This document shows positions 3,345 through 27,657 of a stretch of DNA of 32,000 bases, one piece after another. How positions within the stretch are numbered: position 1 is the stretch's first letter; each line of letters opens with the position of its first letter. Under the pieces are notes generated by a model. That model searched no databases. It worked only from the letters and a program-made list of their open reading frames with translations, and was not told the origin of the DNA. Source of the stretch: Patescibacteria group bacterium (GTDB lineage: Bacteria; Patescibacteriota; Patescibacteriia; 2-01-FULL-39-33); contig JBAZRV010000001.1 in NCBI GenBank assembly GCA_041662745.1, positions 60,001 to 92,000 on the forward strand. Direction: 5' to 3'. The position numbers were made by a program, and so were the translations under genes.

Positions 3345-3386
3345 CCTACCGGCAGGCAGGCTCGGCCTACCGGCGGGCAGGCTCGC
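3345..3386. repeat. 21-bp tandem duplication (2 copies, 2 mismatches) spanning the stop codon of paralog A
   Basis: cctaccggcaggcaggctcgg (3345-3365) and cctaccggcgggcaggctcgc (3366-3386). The TAG stop (3367-3369) lies in copy 2, and the equivalent 'cta' recurs in copy 1. Confidence 0.9.
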
Positions 3387-4104
3387 GGACAACAGCGAAC
3401 CGCCAAACGCCGCTGAAGCCACCCCCAAGACAGTCCAGGCTCAGAGCGCGCCTCGCACCATCCCCGCTGAGGCAAGCGAAGAAGCGGTAGCCGGCACGGC
3501 GCCAAATTGAACCCAGTGCGGCAATGGGGTATAGCCGTTGCAATTCGGGGTGGGCCGCACCCAGAGCCAGCAGTTCTTCAATCTGAGCAAAAAGATAGCG
3601 ATAATTCGCTCCTTGCTTGGCCAGCCAATCATTGACTTCTTTCAATTTGGCAATAATCTGATCGCCATTGCTGAAATCCCGATTGAAGTGGAGTAATTCC
3701 ACTTTGATTTTCCGCTTACCCGCTCCATTGAAAGGGAAATGATCGGCGATGATGTTGGGATTGGGCCAGTCATAGCGGCCGGCGGCGATCATCTGCGCGA
3801 GATTCTTACTGGGATCAATGATCACATCGTAAACGCCGACCAGATAAGAGGAGACAATTTGTTTGGCGGCGATCCTTGTCTTTTGGGTCGCAGGCATCTC
3901 GGCGACAATCAATTCTCCTATCTTGCGAATCGTACCCTCGCCATTAACGCTCGCCAAATAAAGAAGGCACCTGTCAAAATCACCGCCAAGTTCGCCTATA
4001 ACCTTGATCAAGGTGGCGACAATCTCGGTAATCCTGCCCCAATACTTTAGGAGCAACCTCACTGTTATTTCCGCTTCGGCTTTGTTTGGATTTCTCTTGC
4101 CCAT
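3367..4104 (-). CDS. hypothetical protein, paralog A of a 245-aa GC-rich family
   Basis: 245 aa and full-length homologous to 10393..11130. Shared blocks include AAKQIV, MIAAG-YD, ELL-FN--FSNGDQ-IAKL-EVNDWLA-QGA, ELLALGAAHP-LQRL-PIAALGSIW and WRFAVVREP. It has its own consensus promoter, an AAGGAGAAG RBS and a terminator. I recognise no catalytic motif. Confidence 0.8.
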   Translation of the reverse strand: MGKRNPNKAEAEITVRLLLKYWGRITEIVATLIKVIGELGGDFDRCLLYLASVNGEGTIRKIGELIVAEMPATQKTRIAAKQIVSSYLVGVYDVIIDPSKNLAQMIAAGRYDWPNPNIIADHFPFNGAGKRKIKVELLHFNRDFSNGDQIIAKLKEVNDWLAKQGANYRYLFAQIEELLALGAAHPELQRLYPIAALGSIWRRAGYRFFACLSGDGARRALSLDCLGGGFSGVWRFAVVREPARR

Positions 4105-4210
4105 GTCTCTTCTCCTTTTTTGGCCTAATCCCTCATCTCGACCCTATGCCGAAACCCCAGATTAGCCGTTTTTAGGTGCGAATCAGCTTTGCCCGCGGGG
4201 CAAAAGCTAA
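4105..4210 (-). promoter_or_regulatory. conserved, probably structured 5' leader of paralog A
   Basis: The RNA begins with a 5' hairpin (arms 4185-4194 / 4198-4208), followed by GCACCUAAAAAC (4168-4179). A second helix pairs GGCUAAUC (4160-4167) with GAUUAGGCC (4122-4130), followed by CCAAAAAAGGAGAAG and the ATG. The same architecture occurs upstream of paralog B with compensatory changes. Confidence 0.5.
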
Positions 4211-4216
4211 TAGATG

Positions 4217-4245
4217 ATTATATTGCCTAAATAGTTATTTGTCAA
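4217..4245 (-). promoter_or_regulatory. perfect-consensus sigma70 promoter (TTGACA-17-TATAAT) of paralog A
   Basis: Minus strand: TTGACA at 4240-4245, 17-nt spacer, TATAAT at 4217-4222. Confidence 0.75.
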
Positions 4246-10392: not shown

Positions 10393-11130
10393 TCAAGGTT
10401 TCAAAGGGATCGGTTCGCGGACAACAGCGAAACGCCAAGAACTGTAAAGACGATACTCAAGACTAATCAATGACAAGAGGCGCCTCCCCACATTTACGTC
10501 AAGGTAAGCGAAACTGCGATGGCCGGCTTCGTGCTGCCAAATTGATCCCAAAGCGGCAATGGGGTGTAGCCGTTGCAAACCGGGGTGGGCCGCACCCAGA
10601 GCCAGCAATTCCGGCAGGGGGGCGAAGCGGTAGCGATGCTCCGCTCCTTGCTGAGCCAGCCAATCATTGACCTCTTGCAATTTGGCGATGACTTGATCGC
10701 CATTGCTGAAATTTTGATTAAACTGGAGTAACTCTACTCTAATTTTCCTGGTAAGAGGTGAAAGCCTGAAAGAGAAATGACGGTTGTTGATATCCGGATT
10801 AAACGCGTCATACTTGCCGGCGGCAATCATCTGTTCAAGGTCTTGACTGGGATCAACGGTCACATCGTAAATGCCGACAATGCCGACCGGCTGAGGTAAG
10901 ACGATTTGTTTGGCGGCTCTTTTCATAATTCCAGCCTCGGCCGGAGTCAGTCCGGCAATCAATTTGGCGATTGCCCGAAGCGTTGAGTCGCCTTCAGGCT
11001 GAGCCAGCAAATAAAGGCACTGACCGACATTGCCGCCGAATTCCTGGATGTACCTAACCAGATTTACAACAACCGTGAGCAACGCGCCCATGGCCGACAC
11101 CACCGCTTCAACATTCTTCTTTGTCCTCAT
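10393..11130 (-). CDS. hypothetical protein, paralog B of the 245-aa GC-rich family
   Basis: 245 aa, collinear with 3367..4104. DNA identity is locally long, for example ggggtgggccgcacccagagccagca is identical in both. It has its own consensus promoter, an AUAGGAGAAUG RBS and a terminator. Confidence 0.8.
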   Translation of the reverse strand: MRTKKNVEAVVSAMGALLTVVVNLVRYIQEFGGNVGQCLYLLAQPEGDSTLRAIAKLIAGLTPAEAGIMKRAAKQIVLPQPVGIVGIYDVTVDPSQDLEQMIAAGKYDAFNPDINNRHFSFRLSPLTRKIRVELLQFNQNFSNGDQVIAKLQEVNDWLAQQGAEHRYRFAPLPELLALGAAHPGLQRLHPIAALGSIWQHEAGHRSFAYLDVNVGRRLLSLISLEYRLYSSWRFAVVREPIPLKP

Positions 11131-11237
11131 GATGCATTCTCCTATTTGGCCGGTCTCTCATTCCAGCGTTAACGCCAGAACCACGGACCAACCATTTTTA
11201 GGTGCAAATTAGCTCTGCCGACATGACAGTTTGCTAA
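11131..11237 (-). promoter_or_regulatory. conserved structured 5' leader of paralog B
   Basis: A 5' hairpin (about 11209-11237) is followed by GCACCUAAAAAU (11194-11205). The helix GGUUGGUC (11186-11193) / GACCGGCC (11148-11155) has 8 bp including 2 G.U and occupies the same position as the GGCUAAUC/GAUUAGGCC helix of paralog A. CCAAAUAGGAGAA and the ATG follow. Confidence 0.5.
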
Positions 11238-11243
11238 TATCTA

Positions 11244-11272
11244 ATTATATCATATTTACAATATTTTGTCAA
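11244..11272 (-). promoter_or_regulatory. perfect-consensus sigma70 promoter (TTGACA-17-TATAAT) of paralog B
   Basis: Minus strand: TTGACA at 11267-11272, 17-nt spacer, TATAAT at 11244-11249. It is preceded by TGTGGATAA (plus-strand TTATCCACA at 11278-11286). Confidence 0.75.
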
Positions 11273-13193: not shown

Positions 13194-14720
13194 TTATCGG
13201 GCGTATTCGGTCACGCGTTTTTCACGAATGACATTAACCTTGATTTCTCCAGGATATTTAAGCTCGGCTTCTATCTTTTCGGCAATATCCTTGGCCATCT
13301 TGATTGCGCCCAAATCGTCAACCTCGTCCGGCGTAACAAACACGCGCACTTCGCGGCCGGCCTGGATGGCATAGGCCTTGTCAATGCCGGGGAAGCCGAG
13401 GGCGATCTTCTCCAATTCATCCAAACGCTGGAGATAGTTCTCATAACTGTCTTTGCGAGCGCCCAATCGCGCGCCGGAAATAGCGTCAGCAACCTTGACA
13501 ATAATGCCTTCAAAGGTGGATGGCTTGTCATTATGGTGTTCAAAAACCGGAGCGATAATATCCTCGGTAATGCCGAATTTTTTGCAAATATCCCGGCCGA
13601 TTTCCGGATGCGTGCCCTGGACCTCGTGGTCAACGGCCTTGCCGATATCATGCAACAGGCCGGCCTTCTTGGCCACAGCCACATTGGCGCCCAATTCTTC
13701 GGCTAACAGCGCTGACAAATTAGCGACTTCCGCCGAATGGTTTAAAATATTCTGGCCATAGGAGGTGCGGTATTTCAAACGGCCCAAAATTTGCACTAAC
13801 TTCGGATCCAAACCGGTAATGCCTAATTCATAAACCGTGGCCTCGCCGGCCTTCTTGATATCAATGGCCAGATCCTGCTTGGCCTCTTTAATTGTTTCCT
13901 CAATGCGGGCCGGATGGATACGGCCGTCAAAAATCAATTTCTCAATCGCCTTCTTGGCGACTTGGCGGCGAATCGGGGAGAAAGACGACAGAGTAATCGC
14001 CTGCGGCGTATCATCAATAATGATTTCCACGCCGGTCAACTGTTCAATGGTCTTGATGTTTCTGCCTTCGCGCCCGATAATCCGTCCCTTCATTTCGTCA
14101 TTGGGTATGTCCACAACCGATGAGGTTGTTTCGGCGGCATGGCTGGAAGCGCAACGTTCAATCACCGTAGCCAACAATCCTTTGGCTTTTTTCTCCAAAT
14201 CCTCGCTGGCCTCATTCTCCAATTTTTTAATGCGGTTGACCAAATTGTCGGCAATCATGCGTTCGGCATTTTCCAAAAGCACCTTTTCCGCTTCGGCCTT
14301 GGTTAAGCCGGCGATCTTTTCCAGTTTCGCCAATTGGTCTTCCTTGATTTTTTGAACTTCCTCTTTGGCCTTGTTGATCTTATCCGCCTTGTCAGCCAGA
14401 CTGGCTTTTTGATTCTCCAAATCCAGAATTTTCTGATCAAACATGGTTTCGCGCTTTTCCAATCGGGATTTGGCGCTGTCCATTTCCACTTTAACTTGCC
14501 TGGCCTCAACCTTGGCCTCATCAATGATTTTTAAGGATTTCTCTTGCGCGACCAAAACAAGCTCTTTCTGCTTGGCTTTAGCCTCAATCAGCATTTTTTC
14601 AATTTTTGATTCCAAACTGTCTTTTCTTTTTTGCGCCCAGTTCTTGCGCATGAGGTAACCGCCGCCAAAACCGACCAATAACATCGCTAAGGCGATAACA
14701 CCTGAAATAATAATTTCCAT
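13194..14720 (-). CDS. rny: ribonuclease Y
   Basis: 508 aa. N-terminal TM, long K/E coiled coil, KH domain (GRIIGREGRNIKTIE) and HD domain (GLLHDIGKA...HH). Confidence 0.95.
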   Translation of the reverse strand: MEIIISGVIALAMLLVGFGGGYLMRKNWAQKRKDSLESKIEKMLIEAKAKQKELVLVAQEKSLKIIDEAKVEARQVKVEMDSAKSRLEKRETMFDQKILDLENQKASLADKADKINKAKEEVQKIKEDQLAKLEKIAGLTKAEAEKVLLENAERMIADNLVNRIKKLENEASEDLEKKAKGLLATVIERCASSHAAETTSSVVDIPNDEMKGRIIGREGRNIKTIEQLTGVEIIIDDTPQAITLSSFSPIRRQVAKKAIEKLIFDGRIHPARIEETIKEAKQDLAIDIKKAGEATVYELGITGLDPKLVQILGRLKYRTSYGQNILNHSAEVANLSALLAEELGANVAVAKKAGLLHDIGKAVDHEVQGTHPEIGRDICKKFGITEDIIAPVFEHHNDKPSTFEGIIVKVADAISGARLGARKDSYENYLQRLDELEKIALGFPGIDKAYAIQAGREVRVFVTPDEVDDLGAIKMAKDIAEKIEAELKYPGEIKVNVIREKRVTEYAR

Positions 14721-21787: not shown

Positions 21788-22453
21788 CTAATTATTAGTA
21801 TCCTTGTGGTACTGCTCCAGCAAGGCCTGGAGATCGGTCTTCTGGCTCTTGCTCACCGAGTGGTGCAAGGGCCGAGTCGGGCGGGCGATGATTTCCGCCG
21901 CCCGAATGCTGACGTTCGCCGTTATTTGGGCGTTATCGGCGGCGTCTTGCGCGGTCTTGGCCTTCTTGTCGGCCGTATCAGCCAATGCGCCGACATCATC
22001 AATCGACTCCTCCATCAACTTGTCGTACTCCTTGACGATGGCGGGTTCAATGTCCCAGATGCCGTTGGTCAGCAACTTTTTGACTTCCTTCTCGGACTTC
22101 TGCCCGAGTTCGGAATCATCGCCTCCTCGCGCTTGGATTGCCTGCCACTTGGCAAACAACGGATCGTTCTCGGCCTGGACGCGCTTATCCAGACGAGATC
22201 TTACCTTGGCGACGCCGGACGCCAGCGCTTCATCGGCCACGGACTGACTTGCCGTCAAGGCAATCATGTCCGTTTTCAGCAAGGACACGTCCTTTCTCAC
22301 ATTGCCGATGACGGACGCGATAAGGAGTATCAAGACCAGGCAAATTAAGAACCCGGCCCAAACGACATGCGGAACGGCTGAAGCAGACTTATCACGACGC
22401 CGACCGCCGGACTGTTGGCTTACCTGTTGAGTGTCTTGGTCATTATCCGACAT
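21788..22453 (-). CDS. hypothetical single-pass membrane protein with a coiled-coil ectodomain (GC-rich orphan)
   Basis: 221 aa. Polar N-terminus, one TM (VVWAGFLICLVLILLIASVIG), then an A/K/D/E-rich helical region. RBS GAGGAGGAAG, a consensus promoter and a strong terminator. Confidence 0.7.
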   Translation of the reverse strand: MSDNDQDTQQVSQQSGGRRRDKSASAVPHVVWAGFLICLVLILLIASVIGNVRKDVSLLKTDMIALTASQSVADEALASGVAKVRSRLDKRVQAENDPLFAKWQAIQARGGDDSELGQKSEKEVKKLLTNGIWDIEPAIVKEYDKLMEESIDDVGALADTADKKAKTAQDAADNAQITANVSIRAAEIIARPTRPLHHSVSKSQKTDLQALLEQYHKDTNN

Positions 22454-22531
22454 GATTCTTCCTCCTCTTTCCTTGTTTTTTGGTGTTTATCTCATTGTAG
22501 GTGCTTTCGGCTCACATTGCCGAATCACTCC

Positions 22532-22560
22532 ATTATATCATACCTACACCATTTTGTCAA
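22532..22560 (-). promoter_or_regulatory. perfect-consensus sigma70 promoter (TTGACA-17-TATAAT) of 21788..22453
   Basis: Minus strand: TTGACA at 22555-22560, 17-nt spacer, TATAAT at 22532-22537. The upstream TGTGGATAAAtGGAT (plus-strand TTATCCACA at 22566-22574) is homologous to the paralog-B promoter. Confidence 0.75.
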
Positions 22561-26729: not shown

Positions 26730-27485
26730 TTATCTGATAAACAACCTGAACGCCCAACCCAATAAACTAAACCCCTTCTTGGCCGCGCCCAAAGAATTCT
26801 CAACTGCCGAACCGGCTTGTTCCAATATCTGTATTTGCTGAGCCAGCAGCTGCTGATCGCCCTGATTCGCCAATTGATCCTCAAGTTGATTTAATTGTTG
26901 AATCCGCTCGCGGTTTTGTTCCAATAATTTTTGCGCATTGTTTATTTCGCCGTAATTCGGACCGATGAAAAATTTAGCTAAGCCGCTTCTGCTCTGGACT
27001 TTTTCCAGGCTGGCTTCCAGTTTTTCCTGGTTTTGATTTTGTTCCTGCGCAATCACTCTTACCTGCTCACCGATTCCACCGTTTCTCTCCGCCACTTGCA
27101 ACAACTCCTGCACGGCATTAGCGACCTGGCTCCTTCTTTCTTGCGCAAGAGCAGAGCCGGGAATGTCTTCCTCCTCTGACTGCTCGGCTTGAGTTTGATT
27201 TTGATTTTTAACCTGTTCCCCCGCTTCACTGCCATCCTGCAACTGTTGCTGTGTTTGCTGTTGCGCCGGTTTTTCGGCATTTATCCCCGCCGTGTCCCCG
27301 CTTTGAGCCTGCTCATTATTCTGCGTTTCAATCTGGTCGTTTTCCCCCTGATTGGCGGTTTCGGTTTGTTGTTGATTTGGCTGGCTACCGGCGCCGGCAT
27401 TATCATCCTTGCCGGCCGCATAAGCATGGCTGGCGACAAGCAGAGCCATGCCTACGGCAACGGCGATTAGGCTTTTGTTTTTCAT
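26730..27485 (-). CDS. secreted Gln/Glu/Asn-rich low-complexity coiled-coil protein
   Basis: Start taken at MKNKSL (27485), with the signal peptide ...LLVASHAYA. About 100 aa of Q/E/N/A low complexity is followed by a helical C-terminal half. Confidence 0.7.
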   Translation of the reverse strand: MKNKSLIAVAVGMALLVASHAYAAGKDDNAGAGSQPNQQQTETANQGENDQIETQNNEQAQSGDTAGINAEKPAQQQTQQQLQDGSEAGEQVKNQNQTQAEQSEEEDIPGSALAQERRSQVANAVQELLQVAERNGGIGEQVRVIAQEQNQNQEKLEASLEKVQSRSGLAKFFIGPNYGEINNAQKLLEQNRERIQQLNQLEDQLANQGDQQLLAQQIQILEQAGSAVENSLGAAKKGFSLLGWAFRLFIR

Positions 27486-27538
27486 AGTTTTTTCTTTCTC
27501 TTCACCCAATGCTTAGCTTAAACCGAACATTGGGTTAA

Positions 27539-27555
27539 ATTGATTAATAATCAAT
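27539..27555. promoter_or_regulatory. 17-bp perfect palindrome (candidate operator) in a divergent intergenic region
   Basis: attgatta-a-taatcaat at 27539-27555. The 10-mer aataatcaat (27546-27555) recurs at 27570-27579. Confidence 0.35.
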
Positions 27556-27657
27556 ATTTGAATCCATTAAATAATCAATTCGTTATGTTAGAGTTTCTGA
27601 GTCCCGCTAAATATAGTTATAACAAAAAAGAAGGGTTTGCGCAAATAAAAATATCAT

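Follow-up and report, generated by a model that had tools for sequence, protein, structure and literature searches.

What do three transcripts have in common that are predicted to start, within 32,000 nucleotides of one Patescibacteria genome, with a hairpin followed by the same 10-mer? The stretch analyzed (referred to here as the window, 32,000 nucleotides in all) belongs to a genome, G000, of 1,015,727 bases in 10 contigs that is 98% complete, and an earlier note on this DNA had taken the three sites for copies of one RNA element that defines a small regulon. The positions in that note, given on the plus strand, can be kept, but the element itself reads on the minus strand, as do all three 10-mer sites with their promoters, leaders, and genes. 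The sites and promoters are as follows.

4170-4179 and 11196-11205, minus strand: 10-mer GCACCTAAAA (sequence match).
22495-22504, minus strand: 10-mer GCACCTACAA (sequence match).
4217-4245, minus strand: perfect sigma-70-type promoter of paralog A (TTGACA-17-TATAAT).
11244-11272, minus strand: perfect promoter TTGACA-17-TATAAT of paralog B.
22532-22560, minus strand: perfect promoter TTGACA-17-TATAAT of the 221-aa gene.

The shared 10-mer was borne out: GCACCUAMAA has three matches in the window, against 0.24 expected (at least three in 0 of 100 shuffles), each 3' of a TTGACA-17-TATAAT promoter, and genome-wide (1.016 Mb) it occurs in just these three copies. Perfect promoters of this type are common, with about 55 in the genome. 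Each of the three predicted transcripts does start, according to fold predictions, with a hairpin. Separately, the sequence nnnATATT directly after the -10 element (TAGATATT, TATATATT, CATCTATT), found at 4210-4216 and 11237-11243 of the window and at ~20 other promoters genome-wide, has the look of a conserved discriminator or start-site context.

The leaders of paralogs A and B share a common architecture of ~110 nt, which consists, from 5' to 3', of a hairpin with an outer and an inner stem (P1), the single-stranded word, a two-part helix (P2), and a Shine-Dalgarno (SD) sequence.

4102-4211, minus strand: structured leader A (covariance model, 105.6 bits, E = 1.4e-22).
4182-4211, minus strand: P1 hairpin of leader A, outer stem AUUAGC/GCUGAU, inner stem UUGCC/GGCAA (fold and covariation).
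4170-4179, minus strand: single-stranded word GCACCUAAAA of leader A (in BoxA numbering, G2 C3 A4 C5 C6 U7 A8 A9).
4122-4167, minus strand: P2 of leader A, a two-part helix with the conserved internal loop CUGGGG / GAUGAGGG (fold and covariation).
4102-4116, minus strand: SD sequence AGGAG and AUG of paralog A.
11128-11238, minus strand: structured leader B (fold z = -4.8; covariance model, 100.7 bits, E = 1.9e-21).
Parts of leader B, minus strand: P1, 11208-11238; word, 11196-11205; P2, 11147-11194; SD, 11139-11144; AUG, 11128-11130.

In an alignment of 10 leaders out of 5 genomes, standard pairs fill 94.7% of the cells of this explicit structure, as opposed to only 21 to 46% when the 3' partners are slid by 1 to 3 columns. 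Double-sided changes are present in 17 of the 26 pairs, and the observed values were reached by 0 of 500 shuffles. While helices 1 and 2, which make up P1, are 91 to 92% paired, helices 3 and 4 of P2 are 96 to 97% paired, with double changes in 12 of their 15 pairs; the second helix that had been said to covary between the two paralog leaders is therefore real. RNAalifold, run independently, found compensatory changes in 15 of 20 pairs. A covariance model built from this alignment (R1; the window was scored with filters off) identified two copies only in the whole genome, namely, A and B. Among relatives, the leader was found in 14 of 151, and within the same family in 11 of 33, and the genes 3' of the 20 leader hits encode either members of a 245-aa protein family (with C-termini ending in ...WRFAVVRE) or short proteins with C-termini resembling DGR variable regions. 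The word column is conserved in these 20 leaders as G-Y-A-C-N-U, reading GUACAU or GUUCUU outside the genus. A conserved RNA-level element is thus present, as the earlier note had held, and its inability to place the element in a known riboswitch or leader class agrees with our Rfam search: at gathering thresholds over the window, this returned one tRNA and nothing at the leaders, the best match on leader A being freshwater-2 (13.2 bits versus a cutoff of 49.9 bits; E = 8.5). An AT-rich two-hairpin leader elsewhere in the window (27483-27579, minus strand), located before an open reading frame (ORF) ending at 27509 and lacking the word, scored 20.1 bits (E = 0.008) and is probably a chance match.

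The nature of the two paralogs became clear from a locus elsewhere in the genome.

3367-4104, minus strand: gene for predicted 245-aa DGR variable-protein member A, with a variable region at the C-terminus that matches the template repeat (G000:C2:162002-162123).
10393-11130, minus strand: gene for predicted 245-aa DGR variable-protein member B; its variable region is more diverged from the template repeat.

Neither gene has a Pfam or NCBIfam match. An RT gene (G000:C2:162749-163417) directly follows three more paralogs of the 245-aa family, and a template repeat of 122 nt (C2:162002-162123) aligns without gaps, at 77% identity, to the 3' end of gene A. Mismatches between template and variable region fall nearly all at template adenines in the targets on C2 and mostly so in gene A, gene B being more diverged. 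Because of the RT gene, the template repeat, and the adenine-specific mismatches, we assign the 245-aa family to the DGR variable (target) proteins, an assignment made from sequence. The cassette as a whole (G000:C2:160401-163417) comprises two full targets, a truncated copy with the template repeat (162002-162123), and the RT gene; further RT genes are located at C4:57908-58576 and C5:21384-21782 of the same genome. Leaders A and B sit on paralogs distant from the RT gene, and the RT-adjacent targets at C2:160401 have a different leader, starting with GUACGUUACAU. In summary, leaders A and B are a bona fide structured 5' leader RNA of DGR variable-protein genes in this Patescibacteria family. 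In the DGR literature that we searched, UTRs go unmentioned, and no published description of a structured leader on DGR targets was found.

The third leader precedes a gene of another kind.

21788-22453, minus strand: gene for a 221-aa single-pass membrane, coiled-coil-like protein (no family match).
22495-22504, minus strand: word GCACCUACAA of the third leader, outside the structured leader family.
22506-22524, minus strand: small 5' hairpin UUCGGC-N7-GCCGAA of the third leader (fold; one G.U change in the G001 orthologue).

Scored with R1, the third leader (22451-22524) reached 13.5 bits (E = 0.27), which is background level, on a par with unrelated matches such as the rny leader, and the three copies can therefore not be regarded as one RNA family. 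As for the element said to be shared by all three leaders, the 10-mer and the 5' hairpin are there, but a second helix is missing from the third leader, which does not fold better than its shuffles (z = -1.2). Homologues of the 221-aa protein were found within the genus only. In G001 (which, like G002 and G003, is of the same genus), the orthologue keeps the promoter, the hairpin, and GCACCUAC, while the remaining leader has diverged. All that the third gene has in common with A and B is the word plus a hairpin of a generic kind. Genome-wide, too, the 5' hairpin proves generic, being present at 24% of predicted starts versus 15% in shuffles, a modest excess. Like the 5' stabilizer hairpins of Gram-positive bacteria and the 5' hairpin of Bacillus subtilis rrn leaders (PMC13753749), these are small, stable hairpins near the predicted start at strong promoters; unlike for the Gram-positive stabilizers, the starts are predicted only and the overrepresentation is modest.

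The 10-mer is not a self-contained motif either, as it turned out to be a subset of a much larger family of words, with instances throughout the genome far above expectation. Gene calls for this analysis were crude longest-ORF calls (967 ORFs, 87% coding), so that context counts are approximate. While GCACCTA as such is rare, with 20 copies versus 85 for the reversed control, all six copies of GCACCTAMMA are in the sense orientation, after consensus promoters. The 94 copies of GCAC[CT]T[AT]A break down into 48 intergenic-sense, 2 intergenic-antisense, and 44 coding copies, the rare antisense ones having the appearance of unannotated sense transcripts, and one-base control words (GCTC.., GCGC.., GCCC.., GAAC..) showed no comparable strand bias. 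In an unbiased scan of hexamers in co-directional spacers, GCACCT (22 sense versus 4 antisense) came first after promoter, SD, and start-codon words. The word occurs in two contexts, which have a core of 9 nucleotides in common, A-G-C-A-C-Y-U-U/A-A (RNA forms AGCACCUUAA, AGCACCUUAACA, and AGCACCUAAAAA). In the first, with ~31 sites, it lies in a 5' leader, 13 to 96 nt upstream of the start codon, and starts typically 24 to 40 nt after the -10 element (full spread, 2 to 54 nt); at times, a hairpin lies directly 5' of it. In the second, it lies in a 3' UTR, starting 0 to 25 nt after the stop codon and 9 to 12 nt before the first base of a terminator hairpin, from which it is separated by a gap of 1 to 4 nt; this arrangement was found at 27 of 237 terminator-like sites, versus 0 to 9 for ten control words. 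Terminators with the word include those at G000:C1:223340, C9:4974, and C5:87038. The sequence 3' of the core is A-rich in leaders and merges into the stem in terminators.

A strong orientation bias alone cannot separate RNA from nontemplate DNA, so that the word might also be an asymmetric protein-binding site in DNA that points in the direction of transcription, as stoperators do in Cluster A mycobacteriophages. We consider this very improbable, given that the distance to the promoter varies (2 to 54 nt after the -10 element) while the spacing to the RNA hairpin is tight, that alternation between pyrimidines, as seen at two positions, is a typical mark of RNA recognition, and that the word is a conserved single-stranded segment within a covarying RNA structure. 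The view that the 10-mer functions as a single strand, and is not coding context that was duplicated along with the genes, is also supported.

Genes that have the word in their leader encode PlsX, thymidylate kinase, a histidine phosphatase, HU, NusB, the DGR targets, and many uncharacterized membrane proteins, and a Pfam search of 10 word-bearing genes likewise returned unrelated functions. Because these genes are unrelated, and with the word in ~31 of their leaders and before 27 terminators, there is no small regulon. A hairpin beside the word, leniently defined, was present at 18 of 31 sites versus 70 of 155 control positions, and a genome-wide composite of hairpin and word was rejected, its adjacency not exceeding that of the control positions. 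The original proposal of one cis-regulatory RNA, composed of hairpin and 10-mer and governing three transcripts, could point to the exact 10-mer occurring just three times, in each case with a perfect promoter and a hairpin before it, and to the G001 orthologue of the third gene, where hairpin and word are kept. It is nonetheless extremely improbable and, in our opinion, largely refuted by the counts of the word family (~60 sense copies in unrelated contexts), the preterminator copies, and the score at which the covariance model rejects the third leader. Instead, we are confident that two superimposed layers have to be distinguished among the three copies: a structured leader of DGR genes (A and B) and a genome-wide word. 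On sequence grounds, the ~60 sense copies of the latter would represent a transcript-boundary signal that is, apparently, undescribed.

The word precedes the terminator at 13 of 129 convergent junctions and at 14 of 107 co-directional ones, and since the two kinds of junction are alike in word frequency, classical read-through fails as an explanation and was rejected for lack of a co-directional preference. A search for a trans-acting RNA complementary to the word found none, with 16S and 23S rRNA giving partial matches with one mismatch, in conserved internal regions.

Pairing in cis was considered as well. The CACCU in the word resembles the 3' end of 16S rRNA (GAUCACCUCCUUU), which reads GATCACCTCCTTT in this organism, and the word might thus act like an anti-SD sequence that pairs with the SD and throttles translation, with P2 as a clamp in the DGR leaders. 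In the minimum-free-energy folds of leaders A and B, the base of P2 is indeed bridged by pairs between CCU(A) and the (U)AGG of the SD. However, this pairing was not recovered by RNAalifold and is not kept in the divergent members (GUACAU, GUUCUU), and since it is not conserved across the alignment, it is something that we infer from the folds. Moreover, just 3 to 4 bp are possible, a true anti-SD would read CUCCU, and the 27 preterminator copies cannot be accounted for in this way, which together make an anti-SD role improbable.

The word appears to be restricted to the genus, although family-level sampling is thin. At same-genus loci, G(C/U)ACYU is found 17 times in sense versus 2 times in antisense orientation, and both contexts, leader and preterminator, recur in 400 kb of G001. 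At one orthologous terminator within the genus, the stem is altered by compensatory substitutions while the word is unchanged. An unbiased scan of preterminator k-mers recovered AGCAC in the genome of the window (10 versus 1.1 expected) and in G001 (6 versus 0.5); in the class-level relative G037, the same k-mer scans recovered neither the word nor AGCAC. NusB, on the other hand, is nearly universal in the class. Additionally, AATCATTA is strand biased in the spacers of G001 (C1:1-400000), with 13 co-directional sense copies versus 0 antisense, and often overlaps the stop codon or directly precedes ATG.

The known signal that the word most invites comparison with is BoxA, the site of NusB-S10 (NusE). 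Its gamma-proteobacterial consensus is GYTCTTTAANA, with 0 to 7 putative sites per genome, often before Nus-factor genes (Baniulyte et al. 2017, PMC5725501). BoxA is bound as an 8-nt single strand, in which transversions are not tolerated at G2, C5, and C/U6, C6U is neutral, and U8 occupies a pocket of NusB-NusE, with lambda having A8 (Stagno et al. 2011, PMC3177189). Numbered accordingly, the word reads A1 G2 C3 A4 C5 Y6 U7 U/A8 A9 and fits at all positions but the fourth. The 58 tabulated copies all have G2, C3, C5, Y6, and U7, since these define the word; 48 of them have U8 and 9 have A8, and A predominates at positions 9 and 1. Both BoxA and the word are short, single-stranded RNAs read in the direction of transcription, the word segment being single stranded inside the covarying leader. 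Both often adjoin a hairpin, and the orders boxB-boxA of rrn and boxA-boxB of lambda are both represented here. Both are found in 5' leaders, before a Nus-factor gene, and (like nutR) between stop codon and terminator. Regarding the ribosomal operons of other bacteria, a 5' hairpin and then a boxA-like element may open the rrn leaders of B. subtilis, and the rrn antitermination complex has been reported to interfere with intrinsic termination, too (PMC13753749).

NusA, NusB, NusG, and S10 are all encoded in the genome, while neither Rho (PF07497) nor a SuhB-type inositol monophosphatase (PF00459) was found in this 98%-complete assembly. The genes for NusB and S10 lie at G000:C4:114316-114804 and C7:13766-14050, respectively. 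Two tandem words lie 13 and 23 nt upstream of nusB, which lacks an SD here, and are kept in G001 and G002; in more distant relatives, the corresponding place is taken by GCUCUUUA, GCUCCUAAAAAA, UUCUUUAAAA, or ACUCCUAAACAA. Upstream of nusB (MSNRH...), which is without a recognizable Shine-Dalgarno sequence in nearly all of 30 relatives examined, the adjoining 30 nt (loci L043-L071) are A/U-rich and often boxA-like. In the nusA operon, the leader of the gene before nusA contains GCACCUUUAAAAAA 3' of a perfect promoter, and the tuf-rpsJ spacer contains the near-word UCACCUUAG.

The exact word is absent from the rRNA leaders. In the 16S leader, GCACCAA takes its place (16S-leader form AAGCACCAAACC), and in six genus members this leader retains AAG(C/U)A(C/U)CAA, which is word-like but has A7, beside a block, TTGACAAYTRAATAGTG, that is common to both rRNA leaders. 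In the 23S leader, CUCUUUAA occurs only in the three closest genomes, and G004 has GUACCUUA; we rejected CUCUUUAAC of this leader as the "true" BoxA, as it is confined to those three genomes and its flanks are equally conserved.

These rRNA leaders have features of their own. A block in the 23S leader (G000:C1:103923-103995), UUCUUCUCCAAG...CUUGGAGAAAGCGGUUUUUUU, is an intrinsic terminator conserved in six genus members, the 5' half of which can pair instead with the upstream UUCUCCAAG; with a 17-codon ORF preceding it, the block looks like an attenuator before 23S rRNA. The unlinked 16S and 23S leaders (G000:C1:126440-126460 and C1:103825-103845) have TTGACAACTGAATAGTG in common, which presumably resembles the boxA/boxC (NusA-binding) region of actinobacterial rrn operons. 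Finally, a palindromic mini-repeat of ~35 nt, GGATTCCCGCCTGCGCGGGAATGAC, is located in the 16S leader (G000:C1:126500-126540), with 52 matches in G002 and 28 in G003, both of the same genus.

On the basis of these similarities, we tentatively propose, at somewhat less than an even chance, that the word is a BoxA-type NusB-S10 site, i.e., a lineage variant of BoxA. We go no further than that because the support is circumstantial and has to be weighed against several points. First, position 4 is A in every copy, so that the full consensus (with U4) is not matched, and the U4 version, GCTC[CT]T[AT]A, is not enriched (8 sense versus 7 antisense). Second, besides its absence in exact form from the rRNA leaders, the word is present at ~60 copies per Mb, an order of magnitude above the 0 to 7 described for BoxA per gamma-proteobacterial genome (PMC5725501). 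Third, unlike BoxA, it is found mostly on ordinary mRNAs, with half of the copies immediately beside intrinsic terminators, some of which form true 3' ends, and convergent junctions equal co-directional ones. Lastly, it is specific to a lineage, even though NusB is nearly universal in the class. A further difference from the known BoxA systems is that neither Rho nor SuhB was found in this genome.

Some of the same points favor a different reader. The word might be the site of another lineage-specific RNA-binding protein or of an endoribonuclease (RNase Y acting with the adjacent hairpin, or a MazF-type enzyme), marking untranslated mRNA ends for processing, decay, or protection, with the likeness to BoxA being coincidental. 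The restriction to the genus, the position in ribosome-free UTRs at both transcript ends and beside hairpins, the invariant A4, and the equal frequency at convergent ends would all suit such a reader, and rny is encoded in the window (13194-14720). Leader variants of other genera read GUACAU, which contains UACAU, which we take to be the site of Bacillus and Staphylococcus MazF. No candidate reader was identified, though, the enrichment of a destabilizing cleavage site would need a special rationale, and the tandem words before nusB, the copy in the nusA operon, and the word-like block of the 16S leader would be left unexplained. We therefore regard this alternative as possible but on the unlikely side.

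Should the word indeed be a BoxA-type site, the NusB-S10 (NusE) heterodimer would load onto it in nascent RNA and take its place beside NusG and NusA on RNA polymerase; the complex would then modulate events at hairpins, be it intrinsic termination, pausing, or RNA folding. The tandem words before nusB would mediate autoregulation, and in the DGR leader the word would serve as a protein-accessible single strand between P1 and P2. We further speculate, and consider it fairly unlikely, that in this CPR lineage without detected Rho the BoxA-derived word has become a general punctuation mark of mRNA, with NusB-S10 or a new reader loading at 5' leaders and again before the terminator. In that case, the levels of free S10 and NusB, which report on ribosome assembly, would tune termination and the formation of 3' ends throughout the genome, and the genes for DGR variable proteins would carry this site inside a structured leader of their own.

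Control by Nus factors and BoxA is seen as a device of rRNA (and phage) transcription, with few mRNA targets and directed mainly against Rho. A 1-Mb genome that seems to lack Rho and has ~60 oriented BoxA-like words raises the question of what NusB-S10 does without Rho, and the location of about half of the words 1 to 4 nt from terminator hairpins raises the question of whether an upstream RNA word globally tunes intrinsic termination. With a reader other than NusB-S10, the word would be an undescribed transcript-boundary signal. The structured leader, for its part, adds an RNA motif that is supported by covariation and linked to DGR variable-protein genes.
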